Positions 584 through 61,226 of a DNA stretch of 64,000 nt are shown one piece after another; position 1 is the first letter of the stretch; each line of letters opens with the position of its first letter. The stretch is from an uncultured Chloroflexia bacterium (lineage in GTDB: Bacteria > Chloroflexota > Chloroflexia > QHBQ01 > JADMIH01), in assembly GCA_963797095.1 (NCBI GenBank), contig CAWCNY010000006.1, forward strand, positions 672,001-736,000, in the 5' to 3' direction. The position numbers were made by a program, and so were the translations under genes. The notes beneath the pieces were generated by a model that made no database searches, was not told the origin of the DNA, and worked only from the letters and a program-made list of their open reading frames with translations.

Positions 584-657
584 TTGCGGAACGCCGGTTG
601 CGTGTTTGTCTCCTTACCAGGACAAACCCGCAATCCAAAATCTGAAATCCGCAATTC
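582..657. repeat. inverted heptamer arms, ATTGCGG/CCGCAAT-CCAAAAT family
   Basis: aattgcgg ... ccgcaat ccaaaat ctgaaat ccgcaat t. Confidence 0.75.
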
Positions 658-13592: not shown

Positions 13593-15116
13593 GTGATGAG
13601 GAACCCCGTGTTACTGATAGCCATATCCGCCGGTAAGGTATCGGCCCTGGCTACGCGCCTTCTGGGGCGGGGTGGGGGCACGGCCCTCCCAGGTTTGGTA
13701 GCCCAAACCGTCTACCCCGGCGTATTGCGCGACATCACCCGCCAACTTCCCGCAGGCTCGGTGATGGTGAGCGGCACCAACGGCAAGACCACTACCAGCC
13801 GCATGATCGGCTCGATCCTGGAGGCTGCGGGCCTTGCCCCTCTCCATAACCGTTCAGGCTCCAACCTGGAGCGCGGCCTTATCTCGGCCCTGGTAGAGGC
13901 GGCTTCACCCGGCGGTGGCCTCCCGCGTCGCTACCGTTCGGGCCTGTTCGAAGTGGACGAAGCCGCTATGCCCGCCGTGCTGGCTGCGCTCAGGCCCAGG
14001 GTGCTCCTGCTCAACAATCTCTTTCGCGACCAACTCGACAGATATGGAGAGCTTGACACCATATATAGCAAGTGGCGCGCCGCTCTTCACCGGCTTGGTC
14101 CCTCTTCTACCCTTGTGCTCAACGCCGATGATCCAGCAATCGCAGCCCTCACACTATCTCCTAACCTCCGCGCAAGCATCTTGACCTTCGGAGTAGAAGA
14201 CCGTCGCTACGACCTGGGTGCCTTGCCCCACGCCTCCGACTCGATCTCTTGCCCGCGATGCAATAGCCGCCTCCAGTACAGCATGGTGCTCCTCTCGCAC
14301 CTGGGGCATTGGGCGTGTCCCAACTGCGGCCTCGCCCGCCCCCATCCCGATATATCTGCCTTCCATGTCCAATTGAACGGGACCGACAGCAGCGACCTGC
14401 TCCTGAGCACGCCACACGGCGACCTGGAGATCAACCTGCGAGTACCCGGCCTCTATAACGTCTACAACGCGCTGGCAGCGGTCTCTGCGACTCTTGCCTT
14501 TGGCGTGTCCCTCGCCCATATCAAGGGCGGGCTAGAGAGCTTTACCGCCGCCTTTGGCCGCATCGAGCGTGTACCGATCCCAGGCGAAGGCAACCGGAAC
14601 CTGCTGATGGCGCTGGTCAAGAATCCAGTAGGCTTTAACGAAGTGATTAGAATGCTGTTCCCTTTGGACGACGAAGGACGAACGACGAACGACGAACGAT
14701 ACCAGGCGGATGGTGAACAAGCAATTGAACATAATCCAAGATCCAAAATCCAAAATCCAAAATCGAGTGCCCGCCACCTGCTGATCATCATCAACGACCT
14801 TATCGCCGATAGCCGCGACGTTTCATGGCTGTGGGACGTGGACTTCGAGACTTTAGCGACCGCGCCGCAGGGCGTAGCTCGCGTAGACGTGTCCGGCATC
14901 CGCGCAGGTGATATGGCAGTGCGTCTCAAGTACGCAGGTGTGGATATGCCTCTTATCCACTCCACCAAACCCCTTGACGATGCCCTGGATGCCGCAGTTG
15001 CCAATCTACCCAAAAACAGCACGCTTTACGTTCTGCCCACCTACACGGCAATGCTAGAGTTCCGCAAGATGCTGCACGACCGAGGTTGGGTAGACACGCA
15101 ATTCTGGGAGGATTGA
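13593..15116 (+). CDS. murT: lipid II isoglutaminyl synthase subunit MurT (Mur ligase + DUF1727)
   Basis: GGT.LPG, GTNGKTTT, EVDEA, NLFRDQLDRYGE, CP.C/CP.CG zinc finger, LVKNP.G, D.SWLWDVDFE, PTYTAM; adjacent gatD. Confidence 0.92.
   Translation: MMRNPVLLIAISAGKVSALATRLLGRGGGTALPGLVAQTVYPGVLRDITRQLPAGSVMVSGTNGKTTTSRMIGSILEAAGLAPLHNRSGSNLERGLISALVEAASPGGGLPRRYRSGLFEVDEAAMPAVLAALRPRVLLLNNLFRDQLDRYGELDTIYSKWRAALHRLGPSSTLVLNADDPAIAALTLSPNLRASILTFGVEDRRYDLGALPHASDSISCPRCNSRLQYSMVLLSHLGHWACPNCGLARPHPDISAFHVQLNGTDSSDLLLSTPHGDLEINLRVPGLYNVYNALAAVSATLAFGVSLAHIKGGLESFTAAFGRIERVPIPGEGNRNLLMALVKNPVGFNEVIRMLFPLDDEGRTTNDERYQADGEQAIEHNPRSKIQNPKSSARHLLIIINDLIADSRDVSWLWDVDFETLATAPQGVARVDVSGIRAGDMAVRLKYAGVDMPLIHSTKPLDDALDAAVANLPKNSTLYVLPTYTAMLEFRKMLHDRGWVDTQFWED
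14667..14765. repeat. heptamer arrays inserted in frame in murT
   Basis: gacgaag gacgaac gacgaac gacgaac ... atccaag atccaaa atccaaa atccaaa atc; encodes DDEGRTTNDER...NPRSKIQNPKS. Confidence 0.85.
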
Positions 15117-23242: not shown

Positions 23243-24466
23243 TTGAATCACTATTTCTCCCTGCTGACAATTGCGAACAACACCTTTTCTATAGTCCATT
23301 CGTTGGGCTTTGCCGCCGCCCCTGATCCCGCGCCCGCCGGGCATTGGCTTGATCTATTATCGAATATCACCGCCCAGACGTTGCCAACGCCCACAGTAGG
23401 TATCGCACCAGCCGACCCCATAACCTCTACCGGCACTATCAACGCGGTGGCCTCTGTGACAGGTGTCAAGAAAGAGATACCCCCTCTTCAGCCGATCAAA
23501 ATGGTGCGCGGCCTCACCCTTGGCGCTGTGGCTTTTCTGCTGGGTGTAACCGTTGGCAGGCCGGTGATCAACTGGCTCCGCGACAGGGGCATAGGCAAGC
23601 ACATCAGGATCGAAGGCCCCGCCAGCCACCAGGTGAAGACAGGCACCCCCACCATGGGAGGTATGATCTTCCTGATCCCCCTTGTGATCGTGATCGCCGT
23701 CTTCATGGATATTCTCTCCTTCAACTCGTTACTCCTCCCGCTCGGCATCGTGGTGTCGTGCGGTATACTCGGCGCGATAGACGACCTCATGAGCACCGTA
23801 GGGCGCAACAGGGGCGGTATGAAGGCGCGCTTCAAGATGGCCTGGTTGGTGGCGATAAGCACCATCGCAGCGTGCATCCTCTACTTCCTGCTCGGCCACG
23901 ACACGATCCTGCTGCCTTTCCTGACCCCGCCGCCCATACCCATCGGCCTCTTTTATATTCCTATCGCGGTATTCCTGATAGCGGGCACAGCCAATGCAGT
24001 GAACTTCACCGATGGCCTCAACTCGCTGGCGGGAGGCACCACCGCTATCGCGTTCGTGTCCTACGGCATCATCGCCTACCTGCAAAAGCAGGAACCCATC
24101 GTTTACCTCTGCTTTGCCGCCGTGGGCGCGCTGCTGGCCTTCCTCTGGTTCAACGCCCACCCCGCGATGGTCATCATGGGCGATGCAGGCGCCCTCACCC
24201 TGGGTGCGCTGCTGGCGATCTGCGCCCTCATGACCGACCAATGGCTCCTTCTCCCCCTGATCGGCATAGTGTTCGTCGCCGAGACCCTCGCAGTAATTCT
24301 GCAAGTGCTCTACTTCAAGCTGACCGGTGGCAAGCGCCTCTTCAGGATGGCCCCTCTCCATCACCACTTCGAGATGCTCGGCTGGTCTGAAACGCAGGTC
24401 ACCATGCGCTTCTGGATGTTAAGCATGGTGGCCGGGATGCTTGGTGTAGCGCTTGCACTTGTTTGA
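23243..24466 (+). CDS. mraY: phospho-MurNAc-pentapeptide transferase, copy 1
   Basis: KTGTPTMGG, IDD, NAVNFTDGLNS, VIMGD.G, MAPLHHHFE; start uncertain. Confidence 0.92.
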   Translation: MNHYFSLLTIANNTFSIVHSLGFAAAPDPAPAGHWLDLLSNITAQTLPTPTVGIAPADPITSTGTINAVASVTGVKKEIPPLQPIKMVRGLTLGAVAFLLGVTVGRPVINWLRDRGIGKHIRIEGPASHQVKTGTPTMGGMIFLIPLVIVIAVFMDILSFNSLLLPLGIVVSCGILGAIDDLMSTVGRNRGGMKARFKMAWLVAISTIAACILYFLLGHDTILLPFLTPPPIPIGLFYIPIAVFLIAGTANAVNFTDGLNSLAGGTTAIAFVSYGIIAYLQKQEPIVYLCFAAVGALLAFLWFNAHPAMVIMGDAGALTLGALLAICALMTDQWLLLPLIGIVFVAETLAVILQVLYFKLTGGKRLFRMAPLHHHFEMLGWSETQVTMRFWMLSMVAGMLGVALALV

Positions 24467-24497
24467 TCCGAATTCTCAAGAAGGCTAAGTTCCTCCA

Positions 24498-25640
24498 TTG
24501 AGCACTTTCCTTGAATTGGCGAATATCGCTGCTAACTTATGTGTGCTCCCTCATGCACACGGGTCGTTGCCGGATCTTGTGGGGGGCGTAAGCGCACAGC
24601 GCGTGATGACACCCACTGTTGTTACTACGGGCACCGGAGGGGCGAGCATCGCAGCAAGCTTACCCCCGATTACAATGGTGCGCGGGTTGACGCTGGCGGC
24701 CGTGGCGTTCTTGTTGGGAGTGCTTGTGGGCAAGCCGGCGATCAATTGGCTGCGCGACCGGGGCATCGGCAAGCATATCAGGATCGAGGGTCCGGCAAGT
24801 CACCAGGTGAAGACGGGCACGCCGACGATGGGGGGCATGATATTCCTGATACCACTTGTGATTGTTATCGCCGTGTTCATGGATTTGCTGACCTTTAAGT
24901 CGCTCTTGCTGCCGCTGGGGATCGTGGTGTCGTGCGGGATACTGGGTGGAGTAGACGACCTGATGAGCATTGCGGGGCGTAACAGGGGCGGGATGAAGGC
25001 ACGCTTCAAAATGGCGTGGCTGCTCGTGATCAGTACTATCGCGGCATGCATACTTTATTTCTTGCTGGAGTATGATGAGTTGAACCTGCCTTTCCTGACC
25101 CCGCCACCAATACATATCGGATTGCTGTTCATTCCCATTGCGATATTCCTTATTTCGGGCATGGCGAACGCGGTCAATTTTACTGATGGGCTGGACTCAC
25201 TGGCGGGCGGGACTACGGCTATCGCTTTTGTGTCATATGGGATTATCGCGTATCTGCAAAAGCAAGAGCCGGTGGTGTATCTGTGTTTCGCTGTGGTGGG
25301 GTCGCTGCTCGGGTTCTTGTGGTTCAATTCGCACCCGGCGATGGTGTTTATGGGGGACGCAGGGGCGCTTACGCTTGGGGCTTTGCTGGCTGTGTGCGCG
25401 CTGATGACGAACCAATGGCTCCTTCTTCCCCTGATCGGCATAATCTTCGTCGCCGAGACCCTCGCCGTAATTCTGCAAGTGCTCTACTTCAAATTGACGG
25501 GTGGCAAACGTCTGTTGAAGATGTCGCCGCTGCACAACCATTTCGTGGAACTGGGCTGGTCTGAAACGCAAATAACCATGCGCTTCTGGATGGTAAGCAT
25601 GGTAGCGGGCATGCTAGGCGTCGCCCTCGCCCTCGTATGA
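24498..25640 (+). CDS. mraY: phospho-MurNAc-pentapeptide transferase, copy 2
   Basis: KTGTPTMGG, VDD, NAVNFTDGLDS, VFMGD.G, MSPLHNHF; close paralog of copy 1; start uncertain. Confidence 0.92.
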   Translation: MSTFLELANIAANLCVLPHAHGSLPDLVGGVSAQRVMTPTVVTTGTGGASIAASLPPITMVRGLTLAAVAFLLGVLVGKPAINWLRDRGIGKHIRIEGPASHQVKTGTPTMGGMIFLIPLVIVIAVFMDLLTFKSLLLPLGIVVSCGILGGVDDLMSIAGRNRGGMKARFKMAWLLVISTIAACILYFLLEYDELNLPFLTPPPIHIGLLFIPIAIFLISGMANAVNFTDGLDSLAGGTTAIAFVSYGIIAYLQKQEPVVYLCFAVVGSLLGFLWFNSHPAMVFMGDAGALTLGALLAVCALMTNQWLLLPLIGIIFVAETLAVILQVLYFKLTGGKRLLKMSPLHNHFVELGWSETQITMRFWMVSMVAGMLGVALALV

Positions 25641-25671
25641 TTTTGGATTTTAGATCTCCGATTTTGGATTT
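25640..25671 (+). repeat. left heptamer arm (TTTTGGA) of four-helix-bundle cassette
   Basis: ttttgga ttttaga tctccga ttttgga ttt begins at the mraY2 stop and ends at the RBS. Confidence 0.8.
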
Positions 25672-25681
25672 GAGGTAATTG

Positions 25682-26041
25682 GTGAACGAGAAAGAATTCA
25701 AAATCTGTACTAAACGTTTTGCTATTGAGGCAATTCGTTGCGTGCAAGACCTGCCGAGAGACGAAACTGCTGACATAATTGGTAGACAATTATTGCGGTG
25801 TGCTACGTCTGTGGGAGCAAACTATCGAGCTGCATGCCGGGCGAAATCTACACCGGGTATGGTTGCGAAACTTGCGATTGTTGAAGAAGAAGCAGACGAG
25901 AGCTTATATTGGTTGGAATTGTTGGTGGAAGCCGACATTGTTCCTGCTACAAAGCTAACTGACATCATGGCTGAAGCTAATGAGATTACAGCCATGGTTG
26001 TAGCATCAATCAGAACCTTGCGTACCCAAAAGAGCAGGTAA
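25682..26041 (+). CDS. four-helix bundle protein (23S rRNA IVP / TIGR02436-like)
   Basis: TK.FA, I.RQLLR.ATSVGANYRAA.RA.S, KL.IVEEEADE..YWLELL, EA.E; lower GC than neighbours; GAGGT RBS. Confidence 0.9.
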   Translation: MNEKEFKICTKRFAIEAIRCVQDLPRDETADIIGRQLLRCATSVGANYRAACRAKSTPGMVAKLAIVEEEADESLYWLELLVEADIVPATKLTDIMAEANEITAMVVASIRTLRTQKSR

Positions 26042-26077
26042 TATCCTCCAGCCAATCTCGACTTTACGCGCAAGACG

Positions 26078-27523
26078 ATGGACAGAGAAGAAAGATCCAA
26101 AATCCAAAATCCAAAATCCAAAGTCGACGAGTTCCGCAATCAAAGTGTCCTTGTCATGGGACTTGGCGTGCACGGTGGTGGCCTCGGCGTTGTGCGCTGG
26201 ATGGCTGGGCAAGGCGCTAATGTCCGCGTTACCGATCTTCGGACTGAAGATAAGCTCCAGAGTTCCATCGCTGCAATAGAAGCCGAAGGCATCCCCGTCA
26301 CCTACACGCTCGGAGAGCACCGCGAAGAAGACTTCCGTTGGGCCGATATCGTAGTGCGCAACCAGGCCGTTCCGCCAACCTCTCCCTGGCTCACCTTTGC
26401 CCGCAGTCTCGGCAAGCCCATCGAGATGGAGATGACCATCTTCCTCAGGCTATGCCCTGGCCCTGTCGTGGCCGTCACCGGTACCAAAGGCAAATCGACC
26501 ACCGCCACCTGGACCTGGGAGATGCTACGCCACTGGCGTCCTGATGCCCTCCTCGCAGGCAACCTCCGCGTCTCCGCTCTCGAAGCCCTTCAGCGCATCA
26601 CACTCGACACCCCCGTGGTGCTTGAGCTATCCAGCTTCCAGCTAGAGGCGTTCGAGCGCCCCGATGTATCTGTCCACATAGCCGGGATCACCAATCTCTC
26701 ACCCGACCACCTGGATCGCTACAAAACCATGCAAGAGTACGGCGAGGCCAAGAAGATGATCTTCCGCAACCAGCGCTTCGAACAGAGTGATTGGACCGTC
26801 TTCAATGCCGATCACCCTATCGTATCCGGCTGGGCTGCCGAAGCCCCCGCAGGCGTTGCCTGGTTTGGCCTCGACGCAACGCCACGCTCTCCCGGCGTTT
26901 TTCTCGAAGGCGTTGATCTCGTCTGGTATCCACCCGCAGGCGAAAAGCTCTCCCTCGGCAGCAGCGATCTTGTAAAGGTTCCCGGCAAGCACAATTTAGC
27001 CAACGCCGCCTGCGCCGCCGCCATGTCTCTCCTCGCGGGCGCGCCCCTCGACGCTGTGCGTGCCGGCCTCTCCTCCTTCACCGGAGTGGCCGACCGCATG
27101 GAATACCTGGCAACCCTGGAAGGTGTGCGCTTCATCAACGACACAACCTCCACCACCCCCGCCTCCACCGATGCAGCCTTACACTCAGTAGGGGGCGACC
27201 TGATACTGATCGCCGGAGGCGCAGACAAGGGCCTAGATTTCGCCGCGCTCGCGCCCATAGTCGCGGCCCGCACACAGGGCGTGGTACTCCTCGAAGGCAC
27301 CGCCACCGACCTCATGGAGCGCCAGTTCCAGGGGGCTGGAGTGCGCATCCTGGGCCGCTACGACGACTTCGGCACCGCAGTAAATGCCGCCTGGCGCGCT
27401 ACCCCCACCGGCGGCACGGTCCTCCTCTCCCCCGCCACAGCCTCCTTCGGCATGTTCCGCAACGAATTCGACCGGGGCGAGCAATTCAAAGCCATAGTAG
27501 CCCAGTTAGCCACCCCCTCCTGA
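26078..27523 (+). CDS. murD: UDP-MurNAc-L-Ala D-glutamate ligase
   Basis: GLG..G.G, TGTKGKSTT, GN, LELSSFQLE, N.SPDHLDRY, ND..ST, IAGG.DK, LLSP..ASF..F. Confidence 0.95.
   Translation: MDREERSKIQNPKSKVDEFRNQSVLVMGLGVHGGGLGVVRWMAGQGANVRVTDLRTEDKLQSSIAAIEAEGIPVTYTLGEHREEDFRWADIVVRNQAVPPTSPWLTFARSLGKPIEMEMTIFLRLCPGPVVAVTGTKGKSTTATWTWEMLRHWRPDALLAGNLRVSALEALQRITLDTPVVLELSSFQLEAFERPDVSVHIAGITNLSPDHLDRYKTMQEYGEAKKMIFRNQRFEQSDWTVFNADHPIVSGWAAEAPAGVAWFGLDATPRSPGVFLEGVDLVWYPPAGEKLSLGSSDLVKVPGKHNLANAACAAAMSLLAGAPLDAVRAGLSSFTGVADRMEYLATLEGVRFINDTTSTTPASTDAALHSVGGDLILIAGGADKGLDFAALAPIVAARTQGVVLLEGTATDLMERQFQGAGVRILGRYDDFGTAVNAAWRATPTGGTVLLSPATASFGMFRNEFDRGEQFKAIVAQLATPS
26095..26122 (+). repeat. right heptamer arm (TCCAAAA) of four-helix-bundle cassette, within the murD 5' end
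   Basis: atccaaa atccaaa atccaaa atccaaa; reverse complement of the 25640 arm. Confidence 0.85.
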
Positions 27524-47778: not shown

Positions 47779-47892
47779 GTAGCCGGTAGCCGGTAGCCGG
47801 TAGTCGGTAGTCGGTAGCCGGTAGTCGGTAGCCGGTAGTCGGTAGTCGGAACATTCTGTTGCTAGTCCTCCTACTACTGACTACCGACTACC
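47779..47892. repeat. longest heptamer array, (GGTAGYC)x10 with a short inverted arm
   Basis: gtagccg/gtagtcg x10 at 47779-47849; ctactga ctaccga ctacc at 47874-47892. Confidence 0.9.
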
Positions 47893-53616: not shown

Positions 53617-54921
53617 GTGATGGTGAAGTTTAGAGTGACGCCGCACCCGGCTGAGGCGCAGGTTTTGCAGGGGCAGAATATGGCCCGCGTTATGTATGAT
53701 GTGGGGGCCGACGCTAGCGCGGGGCCTTCGGGGCCGGGGGCTGTGCCTGTCTTCCTTAGCGTGGTGCTTGACCAGTCGGGGAGCATGGAGGGGCAGAAAC
53801 TGTACGCCGCCAAAGAGGCGTTGTTGCGGTTGCTGCACCAGGTGCCTTCGAACGATAGAGTGATAATACAAATCACGTTGTTCAGCGATGATGCGCAGGA
53901 GTTCCTCGCGCCTATTTCAGGGACGGATTTACAGAAGCGGATGGAGCCTGTTTCGAGAGATGTCCAGAATATCGCCGCCGGCGGAGCTACGTCGCTTGGG
54001 AGCGGGTTGCGGGTGGCGTTGCGCGCCTCGCGGCCCTATTCAGAGTATGCTCGGCGCGTGTTGATGATCACCGACGGCAAGCAGGAGGGCACTCTCCCTG
54101 TTAGCGATGCTTACAAGGCAGCCAACGAGCTTGCCTCCGCGGGGATCAGAGTCGATGCCTGGGGCGTGGGCAACGGCTGGGAGGCCGACCAGTTGCGCAC
54201 CATCGCGCACAACACCGGGGGAGAGGCCGATGCTTTGCCCGATGCTTTCGGCCTGGTCGATGCCGTGACGCAATTGTTCTCTGACGTTCAGAGCACAAAG
54301 GCCAGCAACGTGCGCCTGGTGCTGAACACCCCCGTTGGCACGCTGATCAAGAGCGTGCGGCAGGTCTACCCGTCGGTGCAGGATAGAGCGGCACAGATGA
54401 TAAACGATCAGAAGTGGGTTATACCTATCGGGGCGTTGACCCAGGAAGAGCCCAAGTTTGTCATCGAATTGGAGACCACGCCAAGGGGAAACAACATACC
54501 ATTCCGCATCCTGGTGCCGACGGTGCTCTATAACCTGGGGAGCGAGGAGTTCGCGGATGAACTGGATAGGTCAGCGTGGTTCTTCGTGAGATGGGTAGGA
54601 TCGCCGGGCGAAGTGAAGATGGACGACCAGTTGACGCGCTTCACCGGAGAGGAGGAGATCGCCAGCCTGTCTCAAGAGGGTTTCGCACTGCTTGAGGTGG
54701 GCGCGGTGGACGAGGCTACCGCCAAGCTGAGCGCGGCGCTCACCAAGGCTGTGCAGATCAACAGCCCACAGGCGGTGGTGTTAAGCGCCGTTGTGAACCC
54801 GAAGACAGGGCGACTGGTGAGCACCAACGCCAGCGACGCGATCAACAAGACAGGCAAACTGCATACCGGTAAGACAGGAAGGATCATTTCGAGCACGGGC
54901 AAACTGCCAGGACCACAATAA
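53617..54921 (+). CDS. von Willebrand factor A domain protein
   Basis: MIDAS DQSGSM, GAT, ITDG, GVG..W....L..IA...GG. Confidence 0.88.
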   Translation: MMVKFRVTPHPAEAQVLQGQNMARVMYDVGADASAGPSGPGAVPVFLSVVLDQSGSMEGQKLYAAKEALLRLLHQVPSNDRVIIQITLFSDDAQEFLAPISGTDLQKRMEPVSRDVQNIAAGGATSLGSGLRVALRASRPYSEYARRVLMITDGKQEGTLPVSDAYKAANELASAGIRVDAWGVGNGWEADQLRTIAHNTGGEADALPDAFGLVDAVTQLFSDVQSTKASNVRLVLNTPVGTLIKSVRQVYPSVQDRAAQMINDQKWVIPIGALTQEEPKFVIELETTPRGNNIPFRILVPTVLYNLGSEEFADELDRSAWFFVRWVGSPGEVKMDDQLTRFTGEEEIASLSQEGFALLEVGAVDEATAKLSAALTKAVQINSPQAVVLSAVVNPKTGRLVSTNASDAINKTGKLHTGKTGRIISSTGKLPGPQ

Positions 54922-55036
54922 TTTTAGATTTTAGATTGCGGATTGAATAGCTCCAATTCCCGCAAATGGCTTCGGCGCTGACTAAGGCGAAGCTAAGAAA
55001 GATAGATCCGAAATCCGCAATCTAGAATCCGCAATC
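54921..55036. repeat. inverted heptamer arms, ATTTTAG-ATTGCGG/CCGCAAT family
   Basis: attttag attttag attgcgg attg ... atccgaa atccgca atctaga atccgca atc. Confidence 0.8.
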
Positions 55037-55056
55037 AAAGAGGGGGGTTTGGTTTA

Positions 55057-59030: not shown

Positions 59031-61226
59031 ATGCCTGAAATTGGAGCGAGACAGCGTAGTCGGAAAGTTGTAGTGTTGGGTGGTGGCCCGGCGGGTTTGT
59101 ATTGTGCGCTTTTGCTCAAGAAGGCGAACCCTGCGTGGGACGTGGAATTGATCGAGCGCAATCCCGCCAATGTGACCTACGGATGGGGTGTTGTCTTTTC
59201 GGATCGCACCCTTTCTTCGTTTCAAAGGGTCGATTATAAGAGCTACACTGCCATTACCGAGCAGTTTGTGGTATGGGATGCCATTGATGTTCGCTATAGA
59301 GGAGAATTGATCTGCTGTGGCGGGCATGTAATCGCGGCGATTGAACGGCGAAAGTTGCTCAACATACTGCAGGAGCGATGCGCAGAGCTTGGGGTTGAGA
59401 TGCGGTTCGGTGTGGATGTCGCGGACCTGTCGCAGGTGCCTGAGTGCGACCTGTTGGTGGCGGCGGACGGTGTGAACAGCATGGTGCGGCGGTCGTTCGA
59501 GGCGGTGTTCAAGCCAAAGACCGAGATGGGTCGGGCCAAATACATCTGGCTTGGAGCCAACAAGGTGTTGGCCGCCTTCAACTTCATCTTCCATGAGACC
59601 GAGCATGGTTTGTTCCAGGTGCATGCCTATCCGTTCAGCGGGACGACCAGCACTTTCATTGTGGAGTGCGCCGAGGACGTGTGGCTGCGGGCGGGGCTGG
59701 ACAAGGCCGATGAAGCCGAGAGTTTGGCGTTCTGCCAGGATCTGCTGGCGGACGACCTGGGTGACGTGCCTCTTCAATCGAACAATTCTAAGTGGATCAG
59801 CTTCGCGACGCTCAAAACCGAAAAGTGGCACACGACACTCCGAAAGCCAAAATCCAAAATCCAAAATAGTATTGTCTTGATGGGCGATGCGGTGCATACT
59901 GCGCACTTCTCGATTGGGTCGGGCACGAAGCTGGCGATGGAGGACGCTATCGCGCTGGCGGAGGCATTGGAGAAGTACGGGGATATCGAAAAGGCGCTGG
60001 ACGCGTACGAGCTAGAGCGCAAGTCCGTTGTTGAGACGTTTCAGCGAGCGGCGCGGGAGAGCCAGGTGTACTTCGAGACACTGAAGCGATATCTTGTGCT
60101 ACCTCCTATGCAGTTTGCGTTTCAACTCCTTACCAGGAGCGGCAGGATCAGCTACGACGACCTCCATTTTCGGGATACGAAGTTTGGCGATGCGGTCGAT
60201 AGGTGTTTCGCTTCGACTGCAACGGAGGCAGCGGTAGGAGGCGGGTTTGCACCCTCGCCCATGTTCGCCCCGCTCACGGTGCGGGATGTCACTATGTCGA
60301 ACCGGCTGGCGGTGGCGGATGCGGTCGCGTCGGAGGGCACTGACGGTACTCCTGCTATGGCGGCTTCGAGAGGACCCTCGCTGAGTGGGTTTGGTCTTGT
60401 TGTAGTCGAAAACTGTGTTGTATCCGAGGATGGGCGTGTGACCCCTTTGGATTGTGGGATGTACAGGGACGAGCATGGGAACGCATGGGCCGAGTATGTG
60501 GAGGCAGTTCACAAGCGGTCGGACGCGAAAGTGGCGTTGCAATTGAATCACGCGGGGCGGCGAGGGGCTACAGAACCGCGCTTGTGGGGCCTTGATAGAC
60601 CGTTGCGCGAAGGTGGATGGGAGTTGGTAGCGGCCTCGGCGGTGCCGTATACGCCGAAGAGCCAGACCCCGAAGGAGATGGATCGCGCTGATACGGAGCT
60701 GGTGCGCGATGACTTCGTGCGGGCGGCTTGCATAGCCGACAGGGCCGGGTTCGATATGCTGCTGTTGCACATGGCCCATGGCTACTTGCTGGCGGGCTTC
60801 TTGTCACCTCTGACCAATCTGCGCGAGGACGAATATGGAGGCGACCTGGATGGTCGGGCGCGCTTTCCATTGGAGGTGTTAGAGGCGGTGCGGCGGGTGT
60901 GGCCTGATGGCAAGCCCCTGGGCGTGTCGCTAAACGCTGAGGACAATATCAAAGGTGGTTTCACTATAAAGGATGCTATTATACTAACGCGGAAACTCAA
61001 AGAGAAGGGGTGCGACCTGGTGCATGTGCTGGCGGGCCAAACCGTGCCCGCAGGGGACCTGCCTTATGGCCGTGGCTTCCTCACGCCATTGAGCGACCGC
61101 ATCCGCAACGAAGCTGGCATCATGACTATGGTCGGCGGATATATGGCGACGAGCAGCGATGCGAACACAGTGCTGGCGGCTGGCCGGGCTGACATATGCG
61201 TAATGTCGGGAGTTGGTAATCGATGA
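59031..61226 (+). CDS. bifunctional aromatic-CoA monooxygenase/reductase (anthraniloyl-CoA / salicylyl-CoA hydroxylase family)
   Basis: GGGPAGLY, GWGVVFSD, DL.VAADG.NS, GDA.HTAHFSIGSGTKLAMEDA, then OYE-like QL.HAGR, H.AHGYLL..FLSPLTN.R.DEYGG. Confidence 0.9.
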   Translation: MPEIGARQRSRKVVVLGGGPAGLYCALLLKKANPAWDVELIERNPANVTYGWGVVFSDRTLSSFQRVDYKSYTAITEQFVVWDAIDVRYRGELICCGGHVIAAIERRKLLNILQERCAELGVEMRFGVDVADLSQVPECDLLVAADGVNSMVRRSFEAVFKPKTEMGRAKYIWLGANKVLAAFNFIFHETEHGLFQVHAYPFSGTTSTFIVECAEDVWLRAGLDKADEAESLAFCQDLLADDLGDVPLQSNNSKWISFATLKTEKWHTTLRKPKSKIQNSIVLMGDAVHTAHFSIGSGTKLAMEDAIALAEALEKYGDIEKALDAYELERKSVVETFQRAARESQVYFETLKRYLVLPPMQFAFQLLTRSGRISYDDLHFRDTKFGDAVDRCFASTATEAAVGGGFAPSPMFAPLTVRDVTMSNRLAVADAVASEGTDGTPAMAASRGPSLSGFGLVVVENCVVSEDGRVTPLDCGMYRDEHGNAWAEYVEAVHKRSDAKVALQLNHAGRRGATEPRLWGLDRPLREGGWELVAASAVPYTPKSQTPKEMDRADTELVRDDFVRAACIADRAGFDMLLLHMAHGYLLAGFLSPLTNLREDEYGGDLDGRARFPLEVLEAVRRVWPDGKPLGVSLNAEDNIKGGFTIKDAIILTRKLKEKGCDLVHVLAGQTVPAGDLPYGRGFLTPLSDRIRNEAGIMTMVGGYMATSSDANTVLAAGRADICVMSGVGNR
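59840..59867 (+). repeat. heptamer array in frame inside the monooxygenase gene
   Basis: ccgaaag ccaaaat ccaaaat ccaaaat encodes RKPKSKIQN. Confidence 0.75.

Follow-up and report, generated by a model that had tools for sequence, protein, structure and literature searches.

A heptamer-armed PF05635 gene cassette between mraY and murD of an uncultured Chloroflexia bacterium, and its relation to dispersed heptamer arrays

Genes of the S23p/PF05635 family occur in the intervening sequences (IVSs) of bacterial 23S rRNA. In Coxiella burnetii, the IVS has a 28-bp terminal stem and tandem GACAGAT heptamers upstream of its S23p open reading frame (ORF), with a copy number that varies between strains, and RNase III cuts at the first repeat (PMC4990558; this and the other PMC papers are cited for parts of their text). 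According to the same source, ORF-bearing IVSs are also found in Leptospira, Brucella and Xanthomonas, a pentamer has been reported for the Xanthomonas homologue, and the 23S rRNA IVS is regarded as a selfish element of unknown origin (PMC4990558). Here, we describe a PF05635 gene cassette located between the dcw-operon genes mraY and murD in a 64,000-nt stretch of DNA, hereafter the window, from an uncultured Chloroflexia bacterium. RAYT genes (transposase genes associated with repetitive extragenic palindromes, REPs) are flanked by their own REPs, the Avd protein of diversity-generating retroelements (DGRs) works on nucleic acid together with a reverse transcriptase, and the short tandemly repeated repetitive (STRR) sequences of cyanobacteria are dispersed heptamer repeats. 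To our knowledge, Avd genes have not been described with heptamer arms. The hairpin-forming REP doublets known as REPINs were presented by Bertels and Rainey in 2011 (PMC3116915). The TAACTGA heptamers of the Beggiatoaceae are mostly intergenic, often lie directly upstream of start codons and are phylogenetically scattered, and they comprise 169 direct-repeat sets and one inverted repeat (PMC4679880). Finally, a figure on CRISPR-linked proteins includes '23S rRNA IVP' in its legend of domain abbreviations (PMC10910872). A full-text search of main articles found no paper on PF05635 genes enclosed by heptamer arrays outside rRNA.

The window corresponds to G000:C6:672001-736000, where G000 is the window's genome (6.02 Mb, 58% GC, 8 contigs); throughout, G and L numbers are genome and locus labels, and C6 and C7 are G000 contigs. 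Segment 25639-26125 of the window is one copy of a widespread armed PF05635 gene cassette, and has the following parts:

25639..25672, + strand: left (5') arm, about five GATTTTG-type heptamers (GATTTTG GATTTTA GATCTCC GATTTTG GATTTGA)
25670..25674, + strand: Shine-Dalgarno-like GAGG at the inner end of the left arm, read from the sequence, with the GTG start 7 nt downstream
25682..26041, + strand: four-helix-bundle gene, 119 aa, start GTG 25682 (alternative TTG 25679), matching PF05635/TIGR02436
26096..26125, + strand: right (3') arm, (TCCAAAA)x4, complementary to the left arm and within the murD reading frame

An earlier note on this stretch, made without database searches, had described a low-GC helix-bundle gene between the second mraY copy (mraY2) and murD, lying in the loop of a potential RNA stem, and this description is confirmed. 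The protein matches PF05635 (E 9.7e-15, 55.1 bits, cut-off 33.8) above the curated cut-off and likewise exceeds the cut-off of TIGR02436, 'four helix bundle protein' (79.5 bits, cut-off 24), and its closest solved structure by sequence match is 2rld_A (E 2.7e-14), an entry with five chains. The GC content of the cassette is 0.45-0.47 versus 0.58 for the genome. Positions 25639-25669 and 26095-26125 are 84% complementary over 31 nt and 95% over a 19-nt core, and in an RNA fold of 25630-26135 the arms are paired in both the minimum free energy (MFE) and the centroid structures, closing the whole cassette (z = -4.05). The left arm begins within the TGA stop codon of mraY2, as the note had it; the right arm, placed there 'just after' the gene, in fact starts 54 nt downstream of the stop codon, so this wording was loose. 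The double-heptamer motif has 13 matches in the window versus 0.22 expected (60-fold), and none of 100 shuffles contained as many. A promoter scan at the cassette gave one site, which was not above shuffles, and the PADLOC anti-phage defence models matched 0 families for either of the two G000 paralogs.

In several respects the cassette is built like a 23S rRNA IVS: an S23p/PF05635 gene in sense orientation within a host transcript, a length of about 430-500 nt closed by terminal inverted repeats with a stem of about 28-31 bp, and tandem heptamers in the arm upstream of the ORF (IVS copy number varies between strains; PMC4990558). It differs in its location, between mraY and murD and not in 23S helix 25 or 45, and in its arms, both of which are whole heptamer arrays belonging to a genome-wide population of about 1000 arrays. 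Moreover, the right arm is translated in MurD, and RNase III excision would damage murD at this locus.

The arm-gene-arm arrangement is not confined to the window. G000 has only two PF05635 genes, and the second, at C7:59321-59776, lies between (GGTAGCC)x4 and (GGCTACC)x4, which are 30/30 complementary. Exact adjacent inverted pairs with a loop of 200-700 nt occur only twice in G000, both times around these genes. Matches to PF05635 were found in 33 of 41 related genomes. For the arm survey, 90 loci were combined with the window locus. Loci from unpublished genomes (three) or truncated at a contig end (two) were excluded, and the remaining 86 were scored for arms by aligning each upstream flank locally to the reverse complement of its downstream flank and taking the best alignment. 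Inverted period-7 arms were present at 67 of these loci, in related published genomes, while 8 had weak arms and 11 had none; mismatched flank pairs, serving as null, reached the threshold in 4/150 cases. The median cassette span was 508 nt (range 418-695). Flanking by inverted heptamers, which the earlier note had proposed to check in paralogs, was thus found for 2/2 genes in G000 and 67/86 in its relatives. Relatives of the window protein with 52-68% identity are present in named records of many phyla, including Chloroflexota, Cyanobacteria, Acidobacteriota, Planctomycetota, Verrucomicrobiota, Bacteroidota, Desulfobacterota and Armatimonadota, among others, and 49 of the 76 evaluable ones are armed. 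In 22 of these 49 cassettes the unit is one of the two main variants seen in the window's left arm (ATTTTGG or AGATTTT), and the others mostly carry GATTnnn-type variants. GATTTTG-type arms accompany the clade of the window protein in Chloroflexota, Cyanobacteria, Acidobacteriota and other phyla. As a separate observation, the cassette of L025 (G014) is flanked by complete hairpins, not single arms, at 1388-1466 and 1894-1972, which are in direct orientation and 74/79 identical. Many contigs of the related assemblies G019, G009 and G007 start or finish in AGTGGTT arrays of about 95 nt; long heptamer arrays appear to break short-read assemblies, so that cassette counts in fragmented genomes are lower bounds.

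Homology between cassettes at different sites ends at the outer ends of the arms. There were 11 pairs of syntenic orthologues with homologous flanks. Among the 70 non-syntenic high-scoring segment pairs, homology continued more than 20 nt past the outer arm end in 1/70 on the left and 0/70 on the right. Examples of cassette-only homology in unrelated flanks are L003/L008 (501 nt at 82%), L063/L075 (553 nt at 75%) and L020/L086 (577 nt). At one site (site A), an AGTGGTT cassette is found in G019 alone and is absent from G007, G009 and G023 despite flanks that are about 90% identical; the heptamer content there is different in each of the three, and G007 has a solitary (CTAACCA)x3 beside the same flank. 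Another site (site B) is filled in G007, G023 and G009, with the gene broken in G009; two further genomes in which this site is empty are unpublished assemblies and are left out of the count. What moves from site to site, and between species and phyla, is the unit bounded by the two arms. The suggestion that arm-gene-arm forms a mobile package is therefore supported by the confinement of homology to the unit and by the armed state of the 2/2, 67/86 and 49/76 genes given above, and we are confident of both the identity of the cassette and its mobility.

The arm unit depends on the protein. In a quick IQ-TREE protein tree of 83 PF05635 proteins, three of them from unpublished genomes, the arm units follow the clades. 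Sixty armed intact cassettes were compared, with sharing defined as a difference of at most 1 nt, and the unit was shared by 16/26 non-syntenic pairs with a protein identity of at least 70%, 46/185 pairs at 55-70%, 9/232 at 40-55% and 22/1316 below 40%. Within genomes, only 1 of 89 cassette pairs shared a unit. Thus, the heptamer is specific to the protein clade, the family specificity that the earlier note had raised as a point to check, and each cassette of a genome has its own unit.

The C7 cassette illustrates how arms change. It is syntenic with a cassette in G017 (77.6% over 3079 nt), its arms are GGTAGCC and those in G017 GGTAGTC, and each pair is 30/30 complementary; arm complementarity is maintained by concerted, compensatory changes. 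GGTAGCC x2 has 51 matches in G000 and 1, 1, 0 and 0 in G017, G014, G015 and G011, respectively, while GGTAGTC x3 is frequent in both G000 (231) and G017 (75). Apart from the cassette, which is one of them, the 20 GGTAGCC loci of G000 comprise 5 short hairpins and 14 arrays that are solitary or mixed, and both units are mixed in 12 of the 20. Seven of these sites were searched in relatives; L172 gave no match, L173 and L175 matched with one flank only, and at the four resolvable sites G017 had no GGTAGYC array (0/4), the position being taken by other content or nothing. A derived unit thus arose both in the arms of the cassette and in newly formed dispersed arrays of one and the same genome. 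The site orthologous to that of the C7 cassette holds an empty hairpin with GTGATAA arms in G015. Two further observations concern the GGTAGYC hairpins. The loops of L171, L174, L176 and L177 in G000 share an (AACCAGG)x2 / (CCTGGTT)x2 module in either orientation, so that whole composite hairpins look copied, like miniature elements. A short G-first hairpin of mixed GGTAGCC/GGTAGTC, with 9 forward and 2 reverse units, lies in the window itself at 47785-47798 (G000:C6:719785-719798) and is among the 20 G000-specific GGTAGCC loci.

The neighbours of the window cassette, and the two places in the window where the earlier note had seen related arms without a gene, are:

23243..24466: mraY copy 1, in tandem with copy 2 and upstream of it
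24498..25640, + strand: mraY copy 2, upstream host gene, co-directional with the cassette
26078..27523, + strand: murD, downstream host gene, single copy in G000
54921..55039, no strand: gene-less hairpin, arms ATTTTAG/ATTGCGG ... CCGCAAT/CTAGAAT, G-rich arm first
624..652, no strand: solitary C-rich array of the same family (CCGCAAT CCAAAAT CTGAAAT CCGCAAT), upstream of rpsM

Only one of these two places is a heptamer hairpin: 54921-55039 has 18-nt arms, 94% complementary, and a loop of about 65-67 nt, whereas 582-657 contains only an unrelated 13-nt non-heptamer stem adjoining the solitary array at 624-652. At the cassette itself, the sole in-frame murD start upstream of the conserved VLVMGLG motif is ATG 26078, within the hairpin loop, and the right arm encodes residues SKIQNPKSK of an N-terminal extension of MurD.

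Within the genus, 21 published genomes have a readable mraY-murD junction. The helix-bundle gene is present in G000 only (1/21), and seven genomes (7/21) have gene-less inverted heptamer hairpins, so that both filled and empty alleles exist, as the earlier note had thought worth looking for. The arms of these hairpins are TTTTGGA/TCCAAAA in G009 and G019, ATTTCGG/ATTTTAG/ATTGCGG in G017, GAATTTC-type in G007 and G023, TGCGGAA in G041 and CGTATTG in G011. Repeat 2 of the left arm has the variant GATTTTA in G000, G017, G009 and G019, indicating that the arms are orthologous and predate the split between G000 and G017. Parsimony favours a hairpin that was there first, followed by a single gain of the interior in G000, although repeated clean loss of the cassette interior may have occurred instead. 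The idea that empty hairpins are footprints of the cassette finds no support here: local alignment of the 46-nt loop of the closest empty allele (G017) to the cassette interior peaked at 13, a score that 456 of 500 shuffles also reached, and global alignments with cheap gap extension gave scatter only. An apparent deletion footprint in the G017 loop was rejected, as the similarity consisted of murD's own ribosome-binding site and start codon. The murD start lies within the loop, and the right arm is translated, in G000 and G017; in G009, G019 and G007 the start is 3' of the arm.

Two other findings at this junction stand apart. In G003 (L045 807-1499), mraY and murD are separated by an insert of 691 nt that is unrelated and lacks heptamer arms; its two small ORFs (130 and 59 aa) overlap and may be a toxin-antitoxin-like pair. 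Low-depth contigs from a soil metagenome were discarded as evidence for filled or empty alleles; they offered 151-nt pieces over the gene, and one 'joint' turned out to be another hairpin with unlike flanks.

The arms of the cassette belong to a large population of arrays. Tandem Repeats Finder reported 1029 period-7 arrays of at least 2.8 copies in G000, 1001 once overlaps were removed, in 187 unit families, which corresponds to one array per ~6 kb. Same-unit inverted pairs with loops below 100 nt number 60, against 2 direct pairs, and heptamer-armed hairpins therefore form a class of their own. Using a crude codon-usage caller, which gave 4573 genes, 84% coding sequence and 15.7% non-coding, 264 of the 1001 arrays fell wholly inside called coding sequences (CDSs), and the remainder (74%) in or at the edge of the non-coding portion. 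Solitary arrays within 40 nt past stop codons are G-rich on the sense strand more often than C-rich (180 vs 79), and the reverse holds within 40 nt ahead of start codons (C-rich 109 vs G-rich 45). Arrays related to the window's arm repeat number 70, at 66 loci. G000 contains no cognate gene for its largest families, ACGAGTG (147 arrays) and ACCGACT (108 arrays).

An inverted repeat reads alike on both strands, and the order 'G-rich arm first' is therefore intrinsic to a hairpin. The G-rich arm is the 5' one in 63/67 cassettes of related genomes, in 46 of 47 scored cross-phylum cassettes (one C-first) and in 55 of 60 empty short-loop hairpins of G000 (three C-first). Cassettes and the gene-less hairpins of G000 share arm families and handedness. 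Arm mismatches are mostly transitions; 48 would be G-U pairs in sense RNA, 50 in antisense RNA, and 45 are of other kinds, and with this even 48/50 split nothing suggests that the sense transcript is under selection. Of the 62 classifiable loci, 60 have the gene in the orientation of its upstream neighbour, and in 52 it is co-directional with both neighbours, which, together with the absence of a promoter-like excess, fits expression by read-through.

As a whole, these data are best explained by a mobile, IVS-like cassette lodged in an old hairpin of the dcw operon, an explanation that we consider probable, with considerable room for doubt. The arms would function mainly as DNA, serving the element as its terminal inverted repeats. 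At mraY-murD, recombination or template switching across both arms would have placed the interior in an older cognate hairpin or exchanged it with such a hairpin, and we put forward this arm-guided exchange only tentatively. The helix-bundle gene would be expressed by read-through from mraY2. Its protein, the relatives of which form pentameric, Avd-like rings, might act on heptamer-repeat nucleic acid, a possibility that we likewise raise only tentatively; if so, the cassette would be the coding member of the hairpin population. The earlier note had called the cassette a candidate autonomous form of the repeats. This is only partly supported: arm families and handedness are shared, but ~1001 arrays of 187 units stand against two genes.

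Several observations weigh against this explanation. Neither a transposase or recombinase nor a target-site duplication is visible at the cassette. Its nearest DNA relatives are only 67-73% identical, in unrelated flanks, which argues against a recent arrival from a sampled donor. Arm-guided exchange requires cognate hairpins in the recipient, and is hard to square with a spread over many phyla unless the arms travel with the gene. The 11/86 armless loci, and one armless clade conserved upstream of recF, indicate that the PF05635 protein does not need arms. Arrays also abound where cognate cassettes are missing, in genomes that are incomplete and, as relatives, not independent samples. TCCAAAA x3, with 42 occurrences in G000, is as frequent in G017 (65) and G011 (71), both of which are without a cognate cassette, and G011, 77% complete, is without any PF05635 match; G008 and G018 have 0. 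TGAGGAC x3 occurs with an intact cognate cassette in G009 (155) and G017 (45) and with a broken one in G002 (11), and also without one in G007 (67), G005 (33) and G011 (24). Arm-rich genomes lacking the gene family, named in the earlier note as contrary evidence, are thus found in part. The mismatch between ~1001 arrays of 187 units and two PF05635 genes in G000 points the same way, and both the crude gene caller and the Smith-Waterman thresholds, which were set for this analysis, call for caution. The armless recF-linked loci are L100, L101, L105 and L107 (in G009, G007, G019 and G023); they encode near-identical proteins immediately upstream of recF and may represent a fixed, domesticated copy. 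A reading of this clade as a reverse-transcriptase neighbour was rejected, its position being upstream of recF.

The distribution of the arrays lends itself to an alternative in which the hairpin belonged to the host and came first, the arrays are host intergenic elements, and the gene is passive cargo whose protein is unconnected to the repeats. In its favour, 74% of arrays lie outside called CDSs in a genome that is 15.7% non-coding, they are G-rich past stops (180 vs 79) and C-rich ahead of starts (109 vs 45), 7/21 genomes have a gene-less mraY-murD hairpin with orthologous arm variants, and arrays are abundant without cognate genes. Passive cargo would not, however, lead one to expect so exclusive a content, with PF05635 genes in 2/2 of the exact-arm 200-700-nt loops of G000, nor an arm unit that follows the protein clade across phyla regardless of host, homology that stops at the arms, or a derived GGTAGCC common to the cassette and the dispersed arrays of G000 only, and we consider this alternative unlikely. 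We are similarly doubtful that the cassette works at the RNA level, with arms that form a stem in the transcript, cleavage by RNase III and excision of the cassette RNA as in the Coxiella 23S IVS. The anatomy of the latter is alike (28-bp stem, heptamers ahead of the S23p ORF, cleavage by RNase III at the first repeat; PMC4990558), the arms do pair in the RNA fold (z = -4.05), and the gene runs with its upstream host gene in 60/62 loci. Nevertheless, murD is single copy and its only start lies in the loop, so a cut stem would separate the AUG from the coding region and disable murD, which also makes the excisable RNA loop suggested in the earlier note doubtful at mraY-murD. Sense RNA has no excess of G-U pairs (48 vs 50), and ribosomes terminating at the mraY stop within the left arm would probably open the stem.

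A relation like that of REPINs and RAYTs, in which the protein mobilises or generates in trans the arrays with its own heptamer and empty hairpins are non-autonomous copies, explains other parts of the data. Here too, a short repeat flanks a single-copy gene in inverted copies and is dispersed elsewhere, in 70 related arrays at 66 loci and as hairpin-forming doublets, and gene and repeat are paired family by family. Besides the cassette arms, the G000-specific GGTAGCC occupies 19 loci, including 5 short hairpins, and its loci are new or replaced relative to G017 at 4/4 resolvable sites; cassettes and empty hairpins have one handedness, and the highest TGAGGAC count (155) is in G009, which has an intact cognate cassette. 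Yet a RAYT is a Y1 (IS200/IS605-like) transposase, whereas the window protein is a four-helix bundle of about 120 aa that matches PF05635/TIGR02436 only and has no catalytic domain, and its repeats are tandem heptamer arrays and not 20-30-nt palindromes. There is also no one-to-one relation of gene and repeat in G000, with 187 families versus 2 genes and no cognate gene for ACGAGTG and ACCGACT; TGAGGAC arrays occur without a cognate cassette in G007 (67), G005 (33) and G011 (24), and gene conversion among arrays could equally give unit sharing. A REPIN/RAYT-like system is therefore improbable in our view. Further down the scale, PF05635 proteins might be the trans-acting partners of an undescribed class of bacterial repeat elements, each clade reading its own 7-nt unit, with the cassette as coding copy and the dispersed arrays and hairpins of many phyla as products of the same machinery, by directional, template-driven repeat synthesis at DNA ends. 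This would involve telomere-like break healing, after which two ends would be joined with or without the gene, and not slow point mutation. Uniform handedness, concerted arm renewal and fast array replacement at fixed intergenic sites would then reflect directional synthesis, but we regard the proposal as speculative and decidedly unlikely. A leftover Avd gene of a former DGR is very improbable. PF05635 resembles Avd in its homologous four-helix-bundle fold (PMC10053308), and the Avd equivalog model NF033474 gives the C7 paralog 28.7 bits, but this is far under the 80-bit cut-off and the model does not hit the window protein; contig C6 has none of the 24 RVT_1 matches in G000, and neither an adjacent reverse transcriptase nor a template/variable repeat pair was seen beside the gene. 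Finally, with an array every ~6 kb, mostly intergenic, a small gene could come to lie between two array-bearing intergenic regions by chance or through annotation. Exact same-unit arms at 2/2 PF05635 genes, compared with about 7 such pairs (gaps of 200-2000 nt, a reading of the pair list) among ~4573 genes, 67/86 armed loci against a null of 4/150, and the recurrence across phyla refute chance, the probability of which is practically negligible.

The TAACTGA repeats share with those of G000 the form of short, mostly intergenic tandem heptamer arrays, but the cited parts of PMC4679880 tie no protein gene, cassette or handedness to them, and in G000 inverted pairs with specific cargo are the rule. 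New in the present analysis are the end of homology between non-syntenic cassettes at the outer arm ends; the tracking of protein clade by arm heptamer, even across phyla; the concerted GGTAGCC/GGTAGTC change, with the derived unit dispersed only in the genome whose cassette carries it; the one handedness of filled cassettes and empty hairpins; and the presence of the same arms, empty, at mraY-murD in sister species. Outside DGRs, no function is known for the very large PF05635/TIGR02436 family, and bacterial heptamer repeats (STRR, TAACTGA) have lacked an explanation for decades; the window locus and its relatives link these repeats to PF05635. The 23S rRNA IVS would also appear as one landing place of a general cassette and not as an rRNA oddity. 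The arm-to-arm mobility unit, the clade-specific heptamer code, the shared handedness and the derived-unit case in a single genome provide experimental handles. In practice, heptamer arrays matter as they are translated inside essential genes, as at the MurD N-terminus, and appear to break assemblies, many lying at contig ends.

Some minor features of the window may be added. The two mraY copies (23243-25640) have ~77% DNA identity over 733 nt, and the tandem duplication is also present in G017, G004, G014 and G015. A composite array insert at 14670-14765 lies in frame within a 507-aa Mur-ligase-family ORF (13593..15116). It consists of a GACGAAC-type G-rich array, a spacer of about 40 nt and (TCCAAAA)x3, and is translated as DDEGRTTNDERYQADGEQAIEHNPRSKIQNPKS; its two arrays come from different families and so do not form a hairpin, and the G-rich array is nevertheless first. 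TCCAAAA arrays are translated in three window proteins, e.g., at 59839-59866 (ORF 59031..61226) and at 26096-26125 (murD), giving the peptides KPKSKIQN / SKIQNPKSK.

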